Source of the DNA: Ruditapes philippinarum
Lineage: Eukaryota
Assembly (NCBI RefSeq): GCF_026571515.1
Contig: NW_026856455.1
Coordinates: 186,001-250,000, forward strand
Direction: 5' to 3'
DNA length: 64,000 bases
The notes under the pieces: model-generated
Seen by the model: only the letters and a program-made list of their open reading frames with translations
Told to the model about the DNA's origin: nothing
The model's database searches: none
Part shown: piece after piece, positions 7,028 through 25,500 of the stretch
Layout of the letters: each line of letters opens with the position of its first letter
Position numbering within the stretch: position 1 is the first letter of the stretch
Program-made: the position numbers and the translations under genes

Positions 7028-7507
7028 CTAAGTTCTATTCACGTGCCAGCTTCTAGAGATTGTAGGAAACGAGTTGATAAGAGTTGGGAACGACTCCTTT
7101 AACTTGGTCGTCCTACTGAACGAAACTGGTATGGTCTGACCCCGATGCCATCGGTTAGGTTGAAGTCTCTGCCTGTGTATGGTCCTTACAGAAGATGCAC
7201 CCCCTATAGGCTGAATAACACGATGTACTTCCGTATTGGGTACTGCTGGGTAAATAATTCTGTTATTGTCCAGGAACGAGGAAGACGACCTTGACACTGA
7301 CCTCATGCCAGGATAAATGGCCGCCGTTTCACTTGACATGGGAGATTCGCCCGGAGTAATTACCGTTTGACGTGACACTGAAGAAGAGGATGAGGAGGTT
7401 TGTCCCGGATAGACGACCGTCTTTTCATAGACAGAGTTTTGTCCGGGGTACATTGCTAATGGTCGTGTGATTGATCGGTAGTTACTCATTATTCCAGTAC
7501 ATCTTTC
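7028..7507 (-). CDS. Terminal TEP exon encoding a 159-aa Ser/Arg-rich tail with YPG-type repeats
   Basis: Acceptor ttttgtag|GAA AGA TGT is phase 0, in frame with the phase-0 donor ATG|gttag of exon 8269-8378; open to TAG at 7028. Confidence 0.7.
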   Translation of the reverse strand, partial: ERCTGIMSNYRSITRPLAMYPGQNSVYEKTVVYPGQTSSSSSSVSRQTVITPGESPMSSETAAIYPGMRSVSRSSSSFLDNNRIIYPAVPNTEVHRVIQPIGGASSVRTIHRQRLQPNRWHRGQTIPVSFSRTTKLKESFPTLINSFPTISRSWHVNRT

Positions 7508-10500
7508 CTACAAAATAAGAATGATTGTAATGGGATAGTCACAAAATAAACTGTACTTGGTAGGCATAGGTTGATTAACAACATTAATCATTGACATAAT
7601 GCTTTTTCAAAGGTAATCATATGGTATCGGTCAATTGAAATAAAATACTAAGTATATGATTCTAAACTTATATGATAACATTAAGCCTGGCATTACAGGA
7701 ACATCCTAAAGCATAATTTAGTTTGTTATGATATTGTACTAGAACGCTATGAAAATAAATATGTCATTTGAGTAATCAGAATGTAATTCCCAGGATACGA
7801 ACCCACGATTCTTTGATAGAGAGGCAGATATTTGTATCAACTGCACACTATTAACCATAAGAAACCAGTTATACTTAAATTTTAAGATGTGTCAGCAATA
7901 TTTTAGGAAAAGCCATTTATGCTTTTGGATCATTATTGTATTTTGATATTTGTCTTTGTATTGATATACACGTAATTATGTTGAAGCAAAATGTCCGACA
8001 TAAAATATATTTAAATTAAGTAATATCACATTAAATATTCTCAGAATAAAGATTGGTTGTTTTATTCTCGGGAGAGTATGCACATTTAAGGCAGAGCAAT
8101 ACTCTAGGCGTCACTCCATTTATCTAATCTTGATCTTAATGTGTAAAACCACTCTGAAAAGTTAAAAAGAGGATTATTGCAAACTAATCTGCAGCTGGAT
8201 TACTATGTCCATGCAAGGATGAAAAAACTAGTGTTAAAGTAAAATTATTGTTCGAAGGGAAGACTAACCATTGGAACAGCCTCTGGATCAAAGCCACACC
8301 CGCATTCAATACCACAGAAATCACATATATAGTTCTTTTTCAGCACGTTAGGTAGATAGAATTTCATTGCACTTTTTTCTAAAAACAAAACGAACCAATA
8401 TCATTATAATCAAAACATTTTACGAGACTTTTAAGACATTTTTTATTATACAAAATATTTAAATTGCTTCAAAGCTTGTCATGACAGTATTTATTTGAAC
8501 AAACAATCTTTATTATTTCTGAATTTGAAATTAGGTTTGATATAAATGTCATTTAATCTATAATCATTTTTGTAAAGTCATTTTTAATTCATTCTTGTAA
8601 ATATTTCATCACGGCTTTATCAGTAAAAGTACAGGAGCAGGAGTGCCTTTGGCATTATTATATTTCAGATTTATCATCATGATTGACCCGGTGCAGTAGG
8701 AAAGTATTTAGCAATGCTTCCGTAAATTGTTGAAAAATTCCAATATTTGAGTAAAATTTACAATAATATTAAAAAATAATGCTTTCGAAGCCATAACATA
8801 TAGGTCTACGTCATGTTTACATTTAATAGCGTTAAATCACGTCTGAACTGACGGCAACACGGCAACGCCATCTGTTGGCTATGGTCAGTGATTTATGAGA
8901 AGCAAGTGATATAACCATACCTGTATTATAATATGAGTACACTCTAACACTAGCTGGTTGTACACGACCAACTGTTGTTTCTCTCACAACATCAATGGTT
9001 TGACATGCGATCTCCTCGTCCAACTGAATAATATAGTCAACAAAATACAGATTAGATTTGTTTTCCATAAACTGTTTTGTAACTTCATTTTATGAACGTG
9101 CATGAGAGCAACCTTCTATTTCTACTTTTCTACTTAAAATATTTGACAAAAAGCGTCCCCAAAACAAAAAAAACCCTAAAACAAAAAAACAAACGAGGTT
9201 TTGATTTGTAAGTCCTGTTAAACGATGTTTAACTTTTCAAATATATTTTACTCCTTATCTCTTATCTAAAGCCTGAACTTAAAAATGAAAACGTGGTAAT
9301 GCTTGATTCTTTCTCAGACTTTTTTAAATAGTTAAAATTGATAAATAAATCATTACAGTGTATTTTTATAACTTAAAAAGATAAAGCCGATGTAAAAAAA
9401 ACAGAAACAATTATACGTGATTTATTTTGATAAACTGGTATAATGTTTGCAACAGTAATAAAAACTCAGACAAAAGATAAAATATAAAACCTACATAATC
9501 ATAGTAGAGTATAAGACGTCCATGTTCCAGTTCCTGTCTGGAGAAATACGCGTTATTTTTCTTTTCTCTTAACCAGAACTCCTCAGATGGTTGTATTGGC
9601 TTATAACCGGAAGGAAAACCAATGTCCAGTAGCACCATACCACTATCCTCGCTATCCAACCACCTAAAGGGTCAATCAAAAATAAAGCAAATGCCAGAAT
9701 CACAATGCCATAGTAAATGTTGAATAGGTATACCTAGAGCAGCATAGTAACATTAAAAGGCAGGCAAACCGTCACATCTTATTGGTGGTGGCGGTAGTTT
9801 TCACTACGGATCACGACAGTAAGCCACATTGAATTACCAGAGCACAATTCAACCACCGCATTGTTCCTGGACAGGCTGATTCCAGGAACAATGCGGTGGT
9901 TTTCCAGCACTAGTTGCCTTCACTTTCGCAAGGAACTGAGACTTCTGTACATACCAGAGCAGAGGTACAATGCGAATGACCAATGACCATTCACATCTTA
10001 TTACTGCTGATGTATCCATTTATTCTAATTTCATACTGCAATACCATAAACTATTTATAGAATTCTCCGAATTCTAACCTCACTATTCGATAACGTTATC
10101 AAGTAAAGGCTAAGCAATATAGTTACGCAATTTTAAAAGAGTTTGAAAACTTGATAAAAGGGTAATGTAAAATGATTAAACTATTTCAAGCCGAAATTTA
10201 AACGAAAATCGCTGCGTTTATGAGCAAGGTATAAATAAACGATCAAGGAAACAAGATCAAATCACAAGCCTAAAATAGTTTCAAAAAAGGTTTTGTCTGA
10301 CAAAAAAACATGAGAAAGAAAGTTACCGTGTGCAAACTTTCAAAGTAAATCTGTCCACTTCTGTACCATTGGTTGTCACCATCAGGTCAAAGCTTGGATT
10401 TCGTTCTTCTTCCAGAATGTTATAAAATGTGCTCACCTGCAACACGCATTTAAAGATCTTGACGAATTGATGTCGTTTTGCTGTTATGTTAAACACTTTC

Positions 10501-13500
10501 ATTTAATACAGTACTGAAGAAAATGAAAACAAAAATCAAGCGAAAATGAAGATGATCCCTTGGGATAAAGCATAATGTTTAAAACGCCTTTTGTGTAATT
10601 TATCTCTTTCATCATTTACAGATCAGTTCTAGTCAAATATTTTGTGTTGCTTTCCAAGATGATATTTATTCTTTTGCGAATGCTATTCCTCCTAGCAAGT
10701 CTTGACTAAATAGTTAAGGTCCTTAAATAATGGAGGGAAATTTAATCTTCATTGACCCAAGAAAGAATTTCGTTTAAGTTTTACATCGCACCAACGCAGT
10801 TAATGTCACATGGCGACTTTTATGTTTCAGACATGAACGGGCACCTGAGTAGAACCACCGAAGTTCCGTAAGCTAGCTGGATAAGAAATTTTGCAATGAA
10901 AATTTGAATAAAATAAATAGGCTGATAATAACATTTAGGCAAAGCACATACCGGGATAAAAAGAAAACAAAAAACATGGTAACGTTGTGTTTGTAACTTT
11001 AACTTAATTTTAAATAAAAGTTACCTCCACTAATCCAGTTCCTCTGCCGGTTGCTGAAATACGAAGGGTTCTGCTTTCCTCTGGTACCTGACAGAAAATA
11101 GAAAATCGTTATAATAAGAGGAAAAGATTGAATATACCCATTATTTATTTCTCAATAAATCTTATACTTAAAAAATGCATAAAAGACTATTCCATAAAAT
11201 ATATAAGTAGAAGATCTGATATGAAACACTATGTTGAATTGAACAAGTTGTTTGGATTTTAATTTCCATTTGATGTATCTAAATTCACTTCAATCGCATA
11301 GCAATACCATAGGGGAGGCAAAGATTTTGGTTGTTTGCTCCACAGAGGGCTGTTCTGCAGAGGTTACACTGTAGGTACATTAAATATTTACATCAATAAA
11401 TTGAAGAACGTCCATGTTTTCTGGGTTTATTGTGACATTCTTTGGAGATTCCGATCCGTAGTCAACACTGACTGTCATACTGACGTCAGAAGTGTACATT
11501 TGTGACGCAATATTCGATAACGCTTGTAAAGCAACTACTGTGTCCTGAAAAAAGAGAAAAATGATATGTCTGTAATTTCAGACGCATTCTGCAAATAATG
11601 CATTGTTTCAGGAAACTCCCATATCATCCATTAAAGATCGTGAAATAAAAAATTCTCAAAAGAAATCCACATTACACACGAGCATTCAAAAATATTAACG
11701 CCAAATTCAGCCAATGGAATTATGTGGATTTTGAAATAATCGTATTAAATTTGATATTCAAGATACTAAGGTTGTCGAGATCTGTCTAGGAATGAGAAAA
11801 ATATCTGAATAAGGGTTGTAATATAAAATACTGCAACACTCAGATTCTTTGAGAGTAAAAGTAACGTACAAGAAAGCAACAGATAAACATAGCAAAAGTT
11901 TTAAAACATGCTAATGCTATTAGAAAGAATTGTTCATGTGCGGTAAAACGAGAAAAAAGACATACGCCTACCGATTTTATATATCTCTACCTTGAGTGGT
12001 ACTGGTATCAATTAAAATGTTATATTCTTAACTTCTAATGACATACCTGTGTCGAGATGAAGCCTCCATAGGGACTTCTTTGTTGTACAAGCCATTTGAG
12101 AACAGGTAGGGCACCGTTTATATTGTTTTGTTTCGCGTAGGCAAGTAGTGCATATCCAGCTGTTTCAATTTCAATACTTCTGACTTCATTCTTCCAGCGC
12201 TTTGTTCCATCTGCAGACAGAGAAAAGTTGACACTAGCTAGCATAAATCTTTTTTAAATAACTTTAGATATAGTTCCACATCACAGGATCATTGACAAGA
12301 AAGTAATTTTAGCAAATTGCTAGAAGGTGGCATGATAATAAGTATTATCTGACATAACGCTTTTCTATTGCTTTTCGCACGAAACGTCATAAAAGAAACA
12401 AAAGACAATATACCTGATTCCACCATTCTGCTGCTCCGGTCTAATCTGGTCAGGAGGTCAGTAGTGTCTGCAGGGTCAGACTGTGCACTGGCATATGCTG
12501 TTATAGCAATCTCATAATCCCCTGTTAGTCTACTCCGTCCTTGCTGAATAAATCCCGTGGCCGACAAAATTGACTTCTTTAACAAGTCTATTTCTGTGAC
12601 GTTTCTCTGAAATTACATCATTTATACGTATGATTTCTTCTTTAATTACATGTTTTGATTTCATGACAAATATATTCCTACTCTTCATAGCACACAGTGA
12701 CAATTTATTACTAGTCAATACATATCGCTTGGAAGCTTTTTTGCATACCATCAACAAGGGTCTTTAATAGAATAGTCTATTTGTATTTGAAAGACCCTGC
12801 ATTAACACATAAAAATATGAAAGAAAACATTAAAAGCCTGCGAGTTTTTAAAAATATATCATATCACTGGGCGATTCCTTGTTTGTGTGTATGTGTTTTT
12901 TTCCGCATTCAACACACAACAAACGAATTTCGTAGATCAAATATTGCAAAAGTGATACGAATAGAATCTATGATACGTACGACGTAAAACGTTAAAGGTT
13001 ATAAAAAATGAAAATATTGCATGCAACGCAAGGATTCAAATAGCGGTAGTGTGCATTTTTAAAATTGATAACTTAGGCTTACCATGATATTTTTACTTTG
13101 GACTTCGTTCATGGCTATCAATACATATGCTGCCAGAGACCTGCTGCTTGATACTGACCCGCCCTAGAAAGAAATAAAATCTAACATTGAATGAAAATGA
13201 AGTAAATGAAGAGAGAAGAAAAGATCAACATTCTGACCGGTAAGAATTTCGCATTTCCATATACATTTGTTTAAAGCTTAGTGCGCCTTAACGTCTTTAA
13301 TTGTCCAAAACGAACCAAACCGTTTTAAGGAAACATTTTATGCTGAAGAAAATGTTTGTAAAAAGAAAGATACCCACCTGCATTGCCTTATTATGAACAA
13401 AACCCGTCGAGTTAAAACTGCCATCTGTTTTCTGATGCTCTAAGATAAACCTGACCCCTTTCTCAATAACTGCTGGATCAATGTATGTAAACTCACTAGC

Positions 13501-16500
13501 CTCTGCGAATGACTTCAAAACAAAGGCTGTGAGCCTGAAAATCGGATAGGAAGCACTTAAACACATCAAAAGATATTAAATGTCTATACAGTTACAATGA
13601 TGATCATTTCTCTAATTTTTTTGTACTTTTTATATTGCAGTTTACTGTGAACATTATTCTATTTAAGTCGGTGTCACACTGTCCTGAAACTGACATACAA
13701 TGGATTTTTTATATAGTTAGAAATTGACCGAGCAAGAACGATGACCACAAAGGGTTACACATTTAAACCTGAGACAACACGAAAATGAATCAGAAAGTCC
13801 TTCAGAATGAGATGCTACTATTTTTGTACTGTCGGGGCTTAAAAGACATCGATTATTTTACGTGGACTTCAGGTAGCTTATATATTTAAGATTATTTTCG
13901 AATCTGAAGTTTTAATCATGTGGCATCTCCTGCGGGACAATCTTACGATGTCAATGCAAACAAAATACAATCAAAACTTATGGAAAGCCTTTCCCAATAT
14001 TAACACATCAAACTGAAGACGATATCAACTAATTGCTTTTCCAAAATGCAACAATTAAGAAAGTCACTAGTATACTAACAAAACCAAGATTTAAAGGCCA
14101 CCTTTCATTGATTCACGATCTGCTTTTGAATTGAAATTTAAAAAAGTCATTTTACCACCAAATGCCGTGTGAAACTTGAAAAAATGTGATAAACGATATC
14201 TAATTTTATGAAAAATACTCACCATAAGCTTCCCTCATTATCTTTGTAACCAAATGCACTGAATGAACCGTCGTGTCTCTGATATGTCAGTTGTCTTTGA
14301 TATCCTGTAGTAAAAAAGGTTCAATAGCCTTTTAAACTTGTTACAATACTAGTTTATCACACAAGCATTTTCTTTGTTCACGTGTAGATATAAAAATTAA
14401 CATGAATCTTGAGACATGCTGCTTTAAATGACATTGTTAACACTATTCCTATCTCAAACAGATGGAGCAGCCAGGATATATTTACATGATATAATATATG
14501 CAGCCAACCTGTTATTCCAGAATTACAATATATAAAAGAAATCTCAAAAGAAATGGAATAAAAAGTCTCCAAAGAAATGGAATAAAAAGTCAAGTGCTTT
14601 TTTGTTTCCTTATTGTTTTTTGTTGTTGTTTTTCTTATGTTAAAAATGTAAATATTTCATGTATGTACATTTTTTTAAAATTGTTTGCATCAATTAATTT
14701 TATTATTGACAATTTATTTCACAATATACATAAAAAAATGATATTTTGCAAACCTGTTTCCATTATATACTCGACTCGTTCCTTCATAGCATCACTGTAT
14801 CTGTTGGTAACTTTTAAGTATTTTGCTGCGAAGACAGCTGGTGCGAACCGGACCATGTTCTGTTCTCCACACCCATAAGGAATCTTGATCAGCTGATCTA
14901 AGTGATCCATAGAGGGACCAAACATGTCGCCTATAAACAAAGTTTGGTTACAATTACATCTGATAAGTATGATAGTCGTGGTCTGGCTGTTTCAATTGGG
15001 TGGCACAAAACCGATGTAAAATTCTGTTGTAGGAAATAACTTTAAATCTTTAAAGGTTATATTCAATAACATTTGTATATCTTAGCCTGATCAATACTCT
15101 TTTTTTTTGTTTTTGTTTTTTTGTGTGTCTAACTGTTCTTGTGTTTGTTGTTGTTATGTTAGACTGCTCCTGCAAACAAATATTTAATACAAAAGAATTC
15201 GTTGCAACGTCATGTTATGCCCATTTCCCGCATAAACGATTTATTTCGACAAGAAGAAATGGTTTCATAAAATAACGATTTTTACTGAAGGAACGGCGTG
15301 ATAAGACAAACCAAACTTGGTAGAACCTAAGTAATTATCTATGAATTAATCTCTAATATTTCAATATAACATTATCATCGATATTTTCCTTGTGTCGGAT
15401 CCGGTCTAAAATCAGTCTTGGCTAAGTTACCTATCACTGTTATTTGTATTCTCTGAGAGTCTGGAACTATTCTTAATGGATAGATAACTGGAACATCTTT
15501 CTCAAAGTTACCACCATTGTCAAGTGATATTAGCACAGGTACATTGTTTTCTTCTTGTTGTCCTGGTGGCTGGAAATAAAATGAATGAATGAAATATTGA
15601 ATGAAATAATGAAATGAATAAAGTAAAACGAATATTTTTATTGTGCAACTACATAAATGTACATGCTATATTTTTAAGTATAAATGATAAATATTTTTGA
15701 TACTTAATCATTTTGATAATTGCAATACATTTCATACAGTAACTATCTAATTTAAAAGAAATGACTCTGACACAGTCATTGTACAGGTGGAATGGGATGT
15801 TTCTACATTGCAAAAGAAACACAAAGAAAATCCTTCGATGAAGTAGTAGATGTGTTTAAATATTTGAATAGCTTTCTTGCTGTATGAATGAAACTTGCAA
15901 ATGTTTTGACAGTTTTGACATTTTCGACATTTTATTAACAGAAAATTTGCATGTTATCAAGAAAAAATGAGATGTAACAACATTATTTGCAATATTAAAT
16001 TAAAATAATTTTGCATATTTATTTATATCTGAGCCATTTTTGGAAAGAAGAACATTTTTGTTTCTAATATCATTTATTTTCTGACGAGCCATATTCTAAT
16101 TGAGTACATATTACAAGTAGTACTTGCAATATGACTAGATTACCCTAAGCAATTTGTAAATGTAGTTGAAGTTGACATTTTTACAAAGTGTTGCCCTAAT
16201 GTCCACTCTTAATGATCTAAAGATTTATAATGTTTGCACTTCTACTCATCATAATTGTAAGGTCACAAGTTGAAGTTTAATTATGTCCTTTTAACTTACT
16301 CTGACAATAAGTTGACGAATAACAGTGTCTCTACCCCTGGGCGATGATGCTTCAACTTCAAGGGTTATTGTCCCTGTCTTTTGTGCTTTAATTGTGAAAT
16401 ACGCCGAGTGGGCATCGTTGGATTTTACCTGCAAAACAAATTGCTTTAAAGACGGAACGGACATTAAACACATCAAACACAAAGAATGAATCATCAAATA

Positions 16501-19500
16501 CTGAACCAACTTTACATAAACAAATCATAATTGAAAAGCAATAATAGAACAAACGTCGTGACTTGTCTGAATCAAATTCATCATCGTATTTTTATAAAAT
16601 CTCTGTTTATTTTTGTTGCTGTAGCTCGTACTTTTTTCATTGGATTTAACCCGTGGTGGTGGTGTTGGTAGTTTACCCTTCGGATCAAGACAGTAACTCC
16701 CTTCCACAAGGTACAAAAGCACAGTTCAGCCACCGCAACGTCCCCGGGAAGGTTGCTAATCAGTTTACCAGAACTAGTGCCTTCACTTAAATAATGTTAG
16801 TAATGTAATGGCCAGGCCTTACAATCATGATATTGAATTAATTCTAAAGTCAATTTAAACATTTACATTAATTTCTTATTTTTCAAAGACTTCATTAAAA
16901 CATTGAAAACTATAATTATTTACCAAAATACATTTTTTGACTCTGTCTTTCGTCTCCTCCTCCTTGCCATATCTGTTTACAGTTATACCAAGGAATTCCT
17001 CTGATGAATTCTTTAAAGACACGGTTACCTGAAATGACAATAACATGGTTTCAAGAAAGACAACAAGTCAAAAGGTCCTCTTCAAATATAAAATTGAAAA
17101 CTTTTTAAGTAATAAGATGCATCTAGAAATAAAATTAAACAGGAGATCCCTTCAGAGCAATGGCAACAAACTCTGATTGACTTTTTGTATAGTTCTGCAT
17201 TAATAAGTTTGATAAATGAGCAACAATTTTCAAATACCCGTTGGCTTATGCAGTATTAAATTTCAAGATAAATAAAATTGAACTCATTAGTATCATCAGA
17301 AAATTGTGACTTCACTGACTATAATTACGTAAGCAATAATTGATTTCACATATCAACCAAGTTATCTATGTATTCAAGAAAGAAAAGGGTCCCCATTGCA
17401 TATATGAGAACAACAATGTGTCTTATTATTTATTAAATTTCTGTAGGAGTCACACAAAAACTGAGGTAATTTAATTGATGGTTGAAATGAACATGATGCA
17501 AAAAATATCGACAAGCAAAGGATGAAATTGAAACGTTAAATAAGAGTTAATGTATATATGCTATGGTAAAAGTAAAAATATACTATAGTAGCTTATATAA
17601 ACATTAGAATTATGTAATAGAAATGTTGTTAATATTAATACTTACATACATATCATGTGGGTAGTAGTTAAACACAAGAGCTTGAATAACCGCCACTTCT
17701 CCAGACACGATGGAAAATGGTAAATGAAGGCTGACGAAAAACGGAAGGTATGCTGTCACCTTTATAAATTAGTAACACATCAAATAATAATAATACTTAT
17801 TTAGTTATCTTATTCGATTCCTTATTGTCAAAAGGATAAACTTTCATGTCAGATCGTTAAAGATCGGTCTAATTCGTCATACCCCGTAACTTATATAATC
17901 ATTGGACGCTAACATGGGCTAGATGAAGCAAAGATCTTGTCAACTTGCGACTGCCTTTACAAAAAACTTGCGGTAAAAGACGAAAACTATCAAAGTTTCA
18001 TCAGCATACAATTTATCTTAAATCATTAAAAACCTTTGCAAACAGAATTGTTCATAAAAGGACAAGTCAAGACAAATATACATATGGCAGACCCCCGCTA
18101 ATATAAGAATGTGGTATACAAACAAAAAACTAATTTACATTAGCAGGGACTGGAGCAACACCGAGACCAGATTCTGCATTGAGAGCATATCCTGTAGCCA
18201 CCCAGTCGGTTATTGTATCTGGTACAGTTGCGGTCATGACCACATTTCCGGTAGAGCTATAAAGATAATTATATACAATGTATTAATAAAAGAATACTAC
18301 TTAAAGATATAATGTGTTCATCCTTGTATAAAATTTTTAATCTGCGAAAATTCTTAAAATCTAAAAATTCTTACTGATTATATCTAATTTTAATAAAAGA
18401 ATGAATAAACTTAGTATTTGAAGCTGTGTTCCCTATTACAGGTCAAATAAAGTTGTTGTTTTTCTTTACAAAAATACCAGTGTTTAACGACATTATATAT
18501 TCACACTGAAACCACCTATAGTATGTAGAATTTAAAACTACCTTATGTGAAGTCAAAACATGTTTTATATATATTGTATATCAAATCTGAGCATAATATA
18601 TCTTTAAGAAATAACACAAACTCTAAATTTTAAATTATAGTGGTAGCGCTTTCAATATTTGTTGTGCATATCATCAGCCGAATATTTAATCAACAAAAAT
18701 AAACATGGAGTTTGTTGTTATTTCTTAAATGTTATAACATATTATTTATTTCAACACTGCACAAGGAACATTTAAATCACGTTTTAATGTACAATGTTCA
18801 TGTATATTTACATAGATACAAATAGGTTCGTCTTTTAACATTTACTGTTTGATTTATAACAAAACCATTACTTTATGTTGATTCATGGAAAAAAGGAAGG
18901 AATATATTTCAATAATAACTATTATTGTATTTTAACTATTAAAGATACACAACTAATGAATATATGCGTTTTTAAGTGACAAATAAAAATTACGCTTGTG
19001 TAACATTTTCTGTGAAAGAAACGATTGCGTTTACTTCAAATTTCCTGTGAAATAAACGATTGCGTTTATAAAACATTTTCTGTGAAATAAACGCAATTTT
19101 CATTTCAAATGCTTAAGTGCTAAACAATGCTATGTGCTAAAAGAGCTCAATGATACTGAAAACCATGTTACAAACATTATACATTTCAGATTATAAGTGC
19201 AAAGACAATGTTAAAGATTTATTTTATTTGTTTGTTTAATTTGACGGATTCGTTTCATATGATGCACAATATACAAATACGTATAATTTTTAAGGATAAA
19301 TAATGATTTTTTATAAAAAATAAGTTTGTTCAATTATGATAATGCTTTAGTGTATTAACATTTTACATCGAGTTATCTTTTCCCTTCTATTAAGCAGATA
19401 TTAATCAGTCCCTGTAAGCCAGCCATACCTGACAGATGTATTAGACCAAATCCAAGTCTCTGGAAAATCTTTTCTCACAGTTGTAGTTAAAGTACAAAAT

Positions 19501-22500
19501 GGCGGCGGGCATTCGCAAGAATATTTTGAACCAGGTGAACATGGGTTAGGTGATGATTCATAAATGCTGTCAATATCAGTAACAAAATACCCATTTCTAC
19601 TGTTAATCTCCATCTGAACTATAAAAAGATTGATACCTGTTTACAACATTGGTGACTAAATATAATATTTTTATTGCCCATTTAACAGGACTTGGAAGAA
19701 TCACATTGTCAGTAATGTGCTTCTTTCAGTTAAATAGCAAGTGATTTTTACACATAACGTTGCATCCATAGACTTGGATTGACTTAAATCTGTCAGGTTT
19801 GGGGGTCACACATTTAGACAAGCTGCAAGACAAAGAGAAAAGAGAGAAACCACTGCTTTTATGTAAAGGGCATACGGATTGACTCGATTTTACTTTGACT
19901 TTGAACGCCCTTTACTTTCACTGTTACCTGACAGACTCATTGGCCCATAACCAAGTCTCTGGGAAATCTTTGCGAATCGTTGTTCTGAAAGCACTTAAAT
20001 ATCTTCCTTGTGTGGATAAACATCCGGGACCATAACATTCATTAATGTCCATTCCTTGGCCGGAAGCTGCCCAAGAAGCACCCCTATCAACATATGGAGA
20101 TTGCTCTTCTATTTGGCGTTTAACTAAAATTGAAATCAATTGTTTATTTCAAACAGGAAACAGTCTTTTGCATTTATAAACAAAGGAATGGAAATTAATT
20201 ATATCTCAGAAAAACGCAATGTTGGATACGAGGGGCTTTATTTTTCTTTTGGAAAATTTAGATTGTGTTACCACCCAAACATCAAAATGTAGATTTTTGA
20301 TGGGATGTAACTTTCAAATTTGTCAAATGCTTAGTAAAAGAAACTAAATCAAGTAAGGGCGCCAATATGAATGTTAATTTCATGTTAATATGACTTAAAC
20401 AGAAAAAAGAATGCATTATAATGATTATATAGTATAATTGTACCTTTTCACAACAAAGCGACAAAAAACCTTCAATGTTCAAATGATTCTTAAATAAATA
20501 ACAAGAAATAATTGAATAAAATAGGTTTAGGTGCATGGTCTTACCAGTTGTTCAATACACTTTGAAAACGAGTAAACGATATGGTTTCATGTTGATCAAA
20601 TTTTGTAATTGGCAATTTTATTATCTGGAACGATATATAAGTAAGTGCACGTCCTTCATGGGCACTATACTAGTACATCATTTAAAATATTAAAAATAAT
20701 TGTACTCACGTTTCATGAAGTTAAAGTCATGCAACAATGCATCTGTAATCACCGAAAGACCGACGTTCTGTAAAATAGTATGGCTGTGAAATATGCGAAA
20801 TTTGAACATGAATAAAGACAATCCTTTAACCATTTGCTAATTTAAATATGTATGTTATATCCTACCTAACTTTAGCCAATAAAAGCTAACAATTATGTCC
20901 TATAAAGGTCTATAAATTTTCTCATACCAAAATCTCATTATGTCTTATGGAATTCTAGTCTCAGGAAAAAATAAGTAATCCGACCGGATGCTTGAAAGAT
21001 TTTAGCAGTGAAACATTTTTTAAACAAACGGTATAGCTCTCTCTTGCCTATATTAGTAATGTTTTTTTCCATTCCCTGTCATGGCAGGCCATTAAATAAT
21101 GTGTATTGTAATACAATGCGATTAAGGTGGGATTTTTTTCGTAGGGGAGGATCCTCGGGATCAGCATTTATATGAAAAAGTACGTAATAACTAAAGATTG
21201 TATAAGAATATATTCATGAAAAGTATTATACTAGTAAAATATTTCACTTCTTAACCCCCCACCCCAGCACCGACCATCGCAGTATTCAATTTTCAACAAT
21301 GTTTATACACTTACATTAAAAATACCAACAACATCGTTACTTGATACTCTTCCATACAAGTAGGAATCTTGGTATTTCCATCCTGGTCTTTCATACACTC
21401 CAAGTTTATTGTACACCTGTTTTGTAAAACATTAATTTGTAAAATGTAATATCATAATTCGAAAATGTCCAGCGAGATTCAAAAAATATTCTGTACTGTT
21501 TCTTTATAGTTTCAAAGCAGTTCTGTTTACTTCCACCTTGAAAGATTCTAAGAAAAATTCACTTGTTTTATAAATTTTGTATAATCGTATATGTTGACAA
21601 TGTACAGTCAAAACTGCCATAGTGACCCACTGTACATAGTGACTTCCTGTCTTATGTGAACCTGTTCTCCTCCCACCCATTTTTTTCGGTTATAAAGTTG
21701 CACTGTATTAAGCAAGTGACTGAGTTACGTTACTAACGACCTTGACTTGTATGGTCCGGAATGTGCATATCAATGTTTTTAGCGACTATGTCATAAAAGA
21801 TATCTCTGTTCTTACTCCTTGTCTGGTTAAAAAATGCCAGAATCAAATAAAAACGTATTGTTTTAGATCTTCAACAGAAGTATGAAGCCATACAAAAACT
21901 GAATATTAAGAGAATACCAGCGTATAAAGTTGCTGAAGAACTAGGTGTTGGAAACGCACAGATCCAGAACCTTCGTTAACGTAAAATAGAAGAAATTTCG
22001 GACTTTGTAAATAATGATCATACGAATACTTAACGTCATATTTTGGTACTTTTGTTACTTTTATTATGCTTGTTAGTAATTTGAATGTACATTATTACTA
22101 ATTGTCAAAAATGAATTTTACCCTCTTTTCGGTGATGTCATTTCCGGTTTTATGCAATATTACACTTTTATCTACAGCAAGAATAAAAACTTGTGAACCA
22201 GGATCAGCCCTGATGTTTAAAGAAACGTTAGTTCCTGGCGAGACTTGGGTCCTGTCGAATTTTAGGCTCACCTGAAAAATGCATTCACCACACATTTGTT
22301 ATACCTCTTACTAATTTTTTATGATATGATATGAAAGTATAGGAGATAAGTTATTAAATAAATGATCGTTTGTAACAGGTTTTGGTGTAATAAAAACAAA
22401 TAACATTGTATGAAGTATAAAGATTTTAAAAGCAATGTAAGTCAGATTTTACAATCAAGTATTGAATAAAAAGTATCAGTATTTATGCCCATTTTGGTGT

Positions 22501-25500
22501 ATGGCAATTTAGACAAAGATTGCTTAAATTGGCGACACACAAAATCCAGTCAAGACGGTCATTGTTTATTTTTACATTTGTCATTGTACAAAACTCTTTC
22601 TGCTTAGAAATGGTCTTAACTGGGTTGTATAAAACCGTTAAAGGTCTGAGTCGATATCACACGTATGTCTTCGGCATTATGTACCGCCTACTGTCCGTTC
22701 GGCAGACAATTCAACCGACAATAAACCAGTGTGTGGCAACCAACTAACTATATGTATGTTTAAAACATATGCTTACAAAAAAGATATAAGAGAAAGAGAT
22801 AAAAAGCAGAAATCGAGAGAAGTAAATCATCCTGTTTTCGAAAATATATGCATGTATTATGGATACAAAAATTCAGAGCTCAAGCTTACATCGTTTTGGA
22901 AATGCATATCAACCGTAAACGTGATGGCGTCAGCAATGATCTCACTGTGTTTATCGTTGTAGTAATAAGCAAGAAGAATACAGTCCGGAACCATCTCTGA
23001 CGTCATTGTCACGTAGAATGTGTTCTTTTGGTAAACAGATGCAATATGGGTAAAATGTGTCTGAATAATCCGTCCATTCTTGATAATCTGAAAATATGGG
23101 AGATTACTAATTGATCGTATGTTACAGAGTGTGTTGAAAAGAAATGGTATTAAATGATGTACGAATAACGGATATCCTTGTGCGATTATAAAGATTTTAA
23201 AATCAATTTGACTATTGCGAAATATTTCATTTCAATTAATGTATTGCATGATTTAAGCTATAACAAATGCATGATCAAAACAGGCGGTATAACCGTAATA
23301 TGGTTTGGTTGGTTTATGTGACATAAACCATTTACATACCATTTACATATTTGCCCATCATCTAGATTATCAAAATCTTTACAAAATAATGATATAGGAA
23401 TGATTACGAATTCTTAACATGCATCGTCTTTGAGAAATGTGCTAAGACAGCAAACGTCGTAACAAAATTATCAACAAGTTCGGGCTTCGCAACCTCACAT
23501 GAATAGGTTCGGGCATCAAATAAAGTATAATTCACAAATATTTTAAGGTAAAATTCTACTTACATGGTAAGTGACCTTTCCGTTTGGTCTGACATTACTT
23601 CTTACACTGAACTCTGCCTGCTTACCAACCTATTCCCAATACAAGTAGGTCACATATAGAATAAATACTATGCAATTATTTTTGCTAATAAGAAACACTA
23701 AGAAATCTAATCTCTAATTGTAATAGGTTATTATATGAAGAGTAATTAGAATTTAAAGAGGCTTAGTTAACATATGGTTCAAATAAACACATTTGAAATG
23801 TTAGTCTTCTTATTATGTTTTTATGTAAATGACATAAAATATATAGACGTTTTGTACCAAATTAATCTAAACTTATCAAATGCCTTTGAAATACAGATAT
23901 TACTGAATAAAAATGTGTTGTTTTTTTTCCGATATCATGACGATATCATGTTGATATTTGTTGATATCATGTTGATATTAAGATGATGTTATGTTAATAT
24001 CACGGTGATATCATGTTGAAATATGTTGATATCATGTTGAAATCATGTTCATGTTGCAACATACCTTTACAAACGAGGATTTCATCTCAAGATGTAAATA
24101 CGATTTACTTGCTGTACGGAAACGCTGGATGTTCTTAGATATTTTCTCATCCTTTAATTTCACCTGTAATTATATGTTAAATTATGCTTATATTTGATTT
24201 GATTTTTGTTGCATTTAAAGTCATATAGAAATTGTGGTATATCAGGATTGCAGATAATACCGACCGAATATCGGCATATTATACTATTCTTTTAATTTTC
24301 TTTTATATTACAATGTACAGTTTTATCAAAATTTAAAAAAAACATAGAAAATTACAGTGTACATGTTAATGCAAACTTGATGACGCAAAAAGTTATTAAA
24401 ACGTTTTCGTTGATTATGCCTCATATGCTTTACAAGGCACAAATAGACACATGGGTATACATAGGAACAAAAAATAATGTTGTTCCAAAGTATGCAAATG
24501 CCTGGGAAAGAAGAGCTACATGTATCAGTAAATGTTTTTATGAATAGAGAGCCGCGCGACATTTATATGCAGCACTTTGCTATCTTGAATATCATAAGTA
24601 ACATTCAACTTACGTCAATATGCCCAGTTGCGACATTCACCGGAATATCAAGTTCCAATTTAATAATTCCATCACGTGGTACAGACAAAAACATTTCCGG
24701 CATAAATATTACATTTCCGTCGGGAAACGGTGATAGAAACTCCATCAAGTTGGACGAAGGACTATTTGGCGGTCTGACAGGTGCTGATACACCGGTTTCC
24801 TTGTCGGTAAAATATGTAACGCCAATACGGACTCTATCCCCAGATTGTGTCAAAGGTCGACCATCAGGTTGTGTGATCTTTATCTACAAGACAACATGAT
24901 AGTCGAATACAATGCACAGTTATCAAAAGAAACTGGTTTTATTTTTTGCCCAAAAATACCAGTTATAATTCAAACTTATCACAGTGGAAGAAATTGTTCG
25001 AAAAGAATTCGAACAAGGAATAAATGTCTATAAAAATATTACTTTATTTTACTTTTCCAAGTAATATTAACCAGTACAAAGTGAGACTTAATCTAAAATT
25101 ATTGAAATATACACCATTTTGAATAGTATGGTTAAATCGAATACAGGTTTGACCAATCGCAATGTATGTCATTTGAAAGCGTTCGTACTTGTTCAAAAGA
25201 CATTTCATACTTGTGAATATATAGGTTTAAATTGATAAATATACTCAATCTTACATAGGTTGTATATTTAAATTCTGGTTTGAACGAGTCATCACCATAC
25301 GACAGGAACTCAAGTTTAAGCGGTCTCTCGTGAAAGGTTATGGTGCTCCTGGCTACACGGATCTCTCCTGTCTCGTCCTCGGTCACGTTGGCCTCTACGG
25401 TCAGGGTATCATACTTCAGCGAAGGATCAAACTTCAACAAGGTGTCAGTGGCAATACTAAAGTCTGCTTCACCGTCGATCTGTTAAATCACCGAAATACA

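Follow-up and report, generated by a model that had tools for sequence, protein, structure and literature searches.

Alternative tandem exons encoding the variable region are known from several thioester-containing proteins (TEPs). The part of PMC7016707 available to us describes 12 variable-region exons in BgTEP2 of the snail Biomphalaria glabrata; they are mutually exclusive and have conserved C-terminal ends. It also cites six mutually exclusive exons for the scallop gene CfTEP and five isoforms for Drosophila Tep2. Here we analyse a 64,000-nucleotide (nt) stretch of the clam Ruditapes philippinarum (contig NW_026856455.1, positions 186,001 to 250,000, hereafter the window), the minus strand of which carries a gene for a CD109-like thioester protein with two exons of this kind, A and B, and a short element, E, in the intron between them. 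All coordinates are window positions, and the exons and elements discussed lie on the minus strand. We consider it very probable that A and B are mutually exclusive tandem exons that give a secreted thioester protein of the CD109/iTEP type two alternative bait regions. As in CfTEP of Chlamys (Azumapecten) farreri, BgTEP2 and Drosophila Tep2, to the extent that the cited text covers them, the clam gene combines tandem alternative bait-like exons with a conserved C-terminal end; unlike them, it has two exons only, and its baits contain Cys. The initial annotation of this DNA had named the Drosophila and scallop genes as precedents, and the same source bears this out. The exon pair itself is known and annotated, since the RefSeq isoforms X1 and X2, which are automatic models only, hold the same two exons of the same gene. 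What is new here is E as a candidate selection mechanism.

Competing RNA pairings are described for other systems. For exons 7a and 7b of human ATE1, the available part of PMC7797038 reports competing R1-R3 and R3-R4 pairings. The clam locus resembles this case in that one element of the inter-exon intron can pair with similar sites at the two exons and would mask one splice site at a time. It differs in that the masked sites of ATE1 are 3′ splice sites, the partners are intronic and the pairings are conserved and mutagenesis-tested, whereas the clam partners are coding ends with 5′ splice sites and the pairing is computed only. In the Dscam type of docking site and selector, one element likewise competes for duplicated partners; there, according to the portion of PMC6071210 at hand, the docking site lies outside the cluster and the selectors are intronic, whereas E lies between the exons and its partners are exonic. 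The masking of single donors by stems is documented in the accessible text of PMC2724269. Literature searches, which did not cover subscription papers and supplements, found neither a study of this exon pair nor a TEP for which an RNA-structure mechanism is described. As far as these searches reach, E would, if the proposal is true, be the first structural mechanism proposed for the choice of bait exons in a TEP.

The tandem arrangement of bait exons is common. Eight groups of bivalve isoforms or near-identical models were compared, and four of the eight differ solely at the bait segment. A motif scan of metagenome contigs gave at least 151 stretches at no fewer than 147 loci, some of which overlap; at least 55 loci have two or more copies, and at least eight copies were found in one locus.

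The exon pair and its transcripts

Exon A (19928..20123, 196 nt) encodes the bait region of isoform X1 and exon B (19429..19618, 190 nt) that of isoform X2. Both begin with TT after the acceptor ag, run from phase 1 to phase 2 and end in CAG, which is followed by gtaaca in A and by gtatgg in B. They are flanked by two constitutive exons, U (20710..20767) upstream with a phase-1 donor and D (18139..18256) downstream with a phase-2 acceptor. The lengths, the shared exon ends, the phases and the upstream donor at 20710 are thus as initially annotated; the downstream acceptor, put at 18257, is displaced by one position, as D starts at 18256 and 18257 is the G of the acceptor AG. When D is read from 18256, both U+A+D and U+B+D are open. 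The joining of U directly to D leads to a stop after 26 codons, and U+A+B+D runs into a stop after 89, as expected from the earlier claim that both exons or neither would break the frame. A and B have the character of tandem exons: they are adjacent and homologous, of similar length and in the same phases.

In a repeat search the 3′ ends of A and B could be aligned over 70 nt with 76% identity, and BLASTN gave an E-value of 1e-8. A hidden Markov model (HMM) built from 85 such segments found exactly two copies in the window, with scores of 35.9 and 35.4; the next score was 2.6, which rules out a third or degenerate exon copy there. The N-terminal parts, about 45 amino acids, had been called unrelated. 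This is slightly too strong, as the A-B score was reached in 107 of 5000 shuffles, a weak residual similarity. Exon A is clearly homologous to a Mercenaria segment (0/5000 shuffles), and for exon B the same comparison showed no homology (1802/5000). This suggests either that the duplication is older than the split between Ruditapes and Mercenaria or that B has evolved fast.

A query with the thioester exon returned the Ruditapes philippinarum protein "CD109 antigen-like isoform X2", the cluster of which also contains isoform X1. XP_060591788.1 (isoform X1, 1647 amino acids) includes exon A and XP_060591789.1 (isoform X2, 1645 amino acids) includes exon B. All but two residues of each match the window exactly (1645 of 1647 and 1643 of 1645, respectively), and the sole difference between the two runs from residue 702 across the A/B segment. 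The prediction of two isoforms was therefore correct, and the concern that automated annotation might merge or miss one of the exons turned out to be unfounded, RefSeq carrying both. NCBI isoform models of this sort are built from transcript alignments.

The alignments to transcript data comprised four of the 24 listed runs; the joints come from the contigs of run X1, and the raw-read runs X21, X23 and X24 had no usable exon coverage. The run X1 contigs contain the GT-AG joints 21315-20767, 20710-20123 (U-A; depth 9.6, 58 letters on the short side) and 19429-18256 (B-D; depth 8.4, 22 letters on the short side), the latter two being among the junctions that the initial annotation had proposed to count. 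Both exons are spliced in RNA, as seen from the U-A and B-D joints and from the RefSeq isoforms. No A-B or U-D joint is listed among the contigs of this one low-depth run. The contig with exon A is identical to the window in 196 of 196 nt and is joined to U, and some contigs continue through the A donor into the intron. The contig with exon B differs from the window at six of 117 letters, and both of the differences that are listed alter the amino acid; the 5′ part of B has no contig depth in this run. The database fragment P0129 (32 amino acids), a near-copy of the B end, has more changes upstream and an intact C-terminal motif. Copies of exon B differ from the window by amino-acid-changing substitutions in the variable part, the A contig being identical, and diversifying selection on B is possible.

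The A/B segment had been assigned to the bait, or variable, region of a TEP. The closest solved structure is human CD109 (PDB 8s3o, 9fx2; E-value 4e-177), and the stretch of chain 9fx2 that we take to be a TEV motif aligns to residues 715-722, within exon A. In the available part of PMC12927315, the TEV site of CD109-TEV is placed in the bait region, so that the alignment with this substituted bait supports the assignment. The variable part of exon A has 2 Cys and 5 K/R, that of exon B 4 Cys, 6 Pro and 2 K/R. Because the baits have different contents of basic residues, Pro and Cys, they probably answer to different proteases. It is established for the family that cleavage of the bait by a protease causes a change of shape and exposes the thioester, which binds the protease or a microbial surface; the clam protein may be expected to act in the same way.

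Incompatibility of U2 and U12 splice sites was ruled out as the cause of exclusivity, as all four introns at the locus are GT-AG with ordinary donors. The single match to YNYTRAY in the A-B intron is TACTGAC (19708..19714), a putative branch-point-like site, the distance of which is 218 nt to the A donor and 91 nt to the B acceptor. The limit used for steric interference in PMC5740500, in the part of that paper available, is 50, and steric exclusion between A and B was rejected as unlikely on account of the distance from the A donor to this site.

An intronic element complementary to both donors

Element E (19764..19803) occupies 40 nt of the A-B intron and is a gapped inverted copy of the 3′ end of exon B with its donor; any function it has is putative. 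It was first noticed in the repeat search, where intron positions 19785-19802 were found to be complementary to the exon B end and donor. With B (19465-19422) E is computed to form 35 pairs, 1 G-U, at −44.0 kcal/mol, and with A (19963-19925) 28 pairs, 3 G-U, at −40.6 kcal/mol. The GU of either donor is covered by the same bases of E, so that by computation the two pairings are mutually exclusive. Among 3187 minus-strand tiles of the window, none forms a better duplex with either exon end than E. For the gene's remaining 34 donors the mean is −26.3 kcal/mol (standard deviation 3.2), the best of them reaching −32.5 kcal/mol.

The complementarity exceeds chance, clearly for B and more weakly for A. 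None of 1000 intron shuffles matched the pairing of E, the targets having been chosen after E was seen. With whole exons as targets and strict pairing, the result was 0/3000 shuffles for B and 21/3000 for A. The inverted BLASTN match of exon B (34/42, E-value 2.3e-4) is the best among 36 exons. When E itself is compared with the two exons, BLASTN gives an E-value of 6e-5 for B and a 10-nt match only for A. Being nearer to B than to A, E probably arose as an inverted copy of the B end.

The folding of growing transcripts predicts that E pairs with the A donor at a probability of 0.99 as long as the B end is lacking, and with B at 0.96-1.00 once it is present. When E-A or E-B pairing is imposed, the predicted energies are −203.3 and −203.1 kcal/mol, 0.2 apart. 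A predicted hairpin of 11 base pairs just after the A donor (19863..19915; −14.9 kcal/mol) would shorten the loop from this donor to E. A second inverted match (16/17) connects 20183..20199, in the intron upstream of A, with exon A positions 20041-20057; it would enclose the A acceptor at −20.3 kcal/mol and, with an E-value of 0.12, is not significant alone. The folding energy of the whole region is unremarkable (z=−0.39). Of the synonymous codon sites in the segment common to both exons, 6/6 are identical from 19962 onward and 3/6 before it, numbers too few for significance.

Based on these data, exclusivity may be organised in two layers. Inclusion of both exons or of neither leads, by computation, to a premature stop, and such transcripts would be lost by nonsense-mediated decay. 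In the second layer, E would pair over one donor at a time. In nascent RNA it would cover the A donor first, and B would be favoured. If the A donor is committed first, or if the B end displaces A, E would instead cover the B donor, so that B would be looped out and A favoured. We consider it possible, if somewhat doubtful, that E enforces exclusivity. It would then be a working RNA switch in which transcription speed or strand displacement picks the bait, a donor-side mirror of ATE1 born by inverted micro-duplication.

Competing explanations

A number of observations weigh against the reading of A and B as exclusive exons that are chosen by means of E. The U-B and A-D joints, which complete the junctions proposed in the initial annotation, are not listed in the run X1 contigs, so that the observed joints alone do not exclude transcripts with both exons; moreover, contig assembly loses rare forms. 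The non-synonymous differences in the B copies fit diversifying selection and also relaxed constraint. The searches for exon B homologues found none in other species and gave the clam's own isoform (1 match of 2 candidates); a further search yielded four matches that owe their scores to the conserved motif, among them the near-copy of the B end of 32 amino acids. As for E, whole-exon targets with G-U scoring gave 0/300 shuffles for B and 45/300 for A, the latter being not significant. The match of E to A follows from the homology of A and B, and the two matches are therefore one event and not independent. A perfect 16-nt inverted match also occurs close to the constitutive exon 35097-34923 (0/200 shuffles). 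No orthologous genomic DNA of the locus, which could have shown conservation or covariation of E, was found among the at least 147 metagenome loci listed. Among the matches listed there were 175 unique TEP exon ends, 172 of them with enough flank (102 from multi-exon arrays and 70 from single exons). The level of 0/100 shuffles was reached by 0/102 array ends and by 1/70 single exons, which rules out a general antisense element in TEP arrays.

We give an even chance to the explanation that exclusivity is brought about by frameshift-coupled decay and ordinary protein splicing factors only, E being the neutral remnant of a small inverted duplication that copied the B end. A neutral inverted relic would look much alike, and the decay could bring about exclusivity without E. 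The closer likeness of E to B than to A is what an inverted copy of B would have, and the absence of E from the other TEP arrays fits this explanation as well. Yet in either pairing E falls exactly on the 5′ splice site, its place is that of R3 of ATE1, and the two folds are near-equal in energy; the higher synonymous identity from 19962 onward points in the same direction, at the small numbers given above. Also against this explanation, the available part of PMC5740500 reports exon-joining reads in only 83 of 377 clusters.

It appears improbable that A is the sole important form and exon B a duplicate that is decaying or seldom used. Such decay could account for the one listed Mercenaria model with its A-like exon, for the failure to find a B homologue outside this species, for the differences in the B contig as compared with none in A, and for the missing depth over the 5′ part of B. 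It does not agree well with the open frame of B, its canonical splice sites, its conserved C-terminal motif and its RefSeq isoform; in addition, the depth of the B-D joint is close to that of U-A, and P0129 keeps the motif intact despite upstream changes. An assembly artefact in the form of merged haplotypes or paralogues, or the presence of both exons in one transcript, is very improbable. According to the accessible part of PMC6831834, heterozygosity in the species is high and its CD109/iTEP genes number 17, which speaks for an artefact. However, A and B can be aligned only over their last 70 nt, and there they diverge much more than alleles would. The U-A and B-D joints, both within this one gene, were seen in an independent run, and Ns occur in the window only as one run at 36777-36906. 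Double inclusion, for its part, is opposed by the stop in U+A+B+D.

Host protein, related exons and significance

The coding exons from residue 2 to the last residue span 7031..37232 and comprise 36 segments per isoform, identified by the RefSeq match and Pfam; the start ATG of the gene lies upstream of these mapped segments. The thioester motif GCGEQ is intact in the exon at 14754..14930 (RefSeq match). Downstream of it, the histidine of GFVHNK presumably has the catalytic role assigned to its counterpart in complement C3. Seven Pfam families were found (MG2, MG3, A2M_BRD, A2M, TED, CUB2 and A2M_recep), and the Pfam scan of the protein gave neither C345C nor anaphylatoxin (ANATO) domains. With GCGEQ in the TED domain and the order MG, bait, CUB, TED and receptor-binding, the protein is a member of the CD109/iTEP group of the TEP superfamily. 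The domain order, the thioester and the position of the bait are common to it and human CD109. Unlike human CD109, the clam protein lacks both a hydrophobic C-terminal anchor signal (over its last 200 residues, hydropathy in 19-residue stretches peaks at 0.66, with no dedicated predictor used) and an R-x-K/R-R site, and it ends in a 160-residue tail. Since the C-terminus is not hydrophobic, the protein looks secreted and not membrane-anchored. The tail, with YPG-type repeats, is encoded by the last exon (7031-7507) and is covered by no Pfam family; a short motif in it is also present in proteins of Mercenaria, Mya and Dreissena.

In a quick tree of 33 rows, the clam protein groups with those of Mercenaria, Mactra, Dreissena and Mya (SH-aLRT 100), and scallop CfTEP falls outside this group. 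The rows Sinanodonta, lgn17, Potamilus_a, Biomph_CD109 and Pelobates were mis-cut, and their group is artefactual and was ignored. By its position apart from CfTEP, the clam gene is a paralogue and not an orthologue of the scallop gene.

The metagenome loci provide two further observations on TEP exon ends. In multi-exon arrays (loci L001-L147, for example L031, L067 and L084), the donor is GG/GTACC, the slash marking the splice site, in 59 of 101 unique ends as against 8 of 74 single exons, among the matches listed; the arrays are related and these counts are not independent. GG/GTACC is a weak donor and at the same time a palindrome. At L087:530-587 (oriented strand), the end of a single TEP exon is strongly complementary to a stretch that follows some 190-250 nt downstream (z 5.5, 0/100 shuffles). 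The locus is 640 nt long only, and a second exon may lie beyond it.

Repeats were noted elsewhere in the gene and window. A broken LINE-like remnant (31767-34859), endonuclease- and reverse-transcriptase-like by eye, lies in the intron after exon 35097-34923, and the 16-nt inverted match of that exon is inside it, at 34752-34767. Pfam gave no match for the LINE-like fragments (4/4) and nothing for the other open frames tested in the window (8/8). The B-D intron contains a repeat-like stretch (18295-18632), perhaps a small non-autonomous transposon, which has imperfect inverted ends and to which many reads match in part in each of the four runs. The same intron has a 35-nt unit in three tandem copies (18989-19100). 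Similar palindromic-looking copies of an interspersed repeat, with near-identical translations, are found at 38361-38620 and 29895-30040.

The exon pair adds one more mollusc case to the known diversification of TEPs; the species is a farmed clam, and the gene a paralogue distinct from that of the scallop. If E is functional, the locus would provide a compact (~700 nt) two-exon model in which the choice of bait exons can be tested. In that case it would also illustrate a simple evolutionary route to exclusivity, namely a short inverted copy of an exon end that is able to silence either duplicate.

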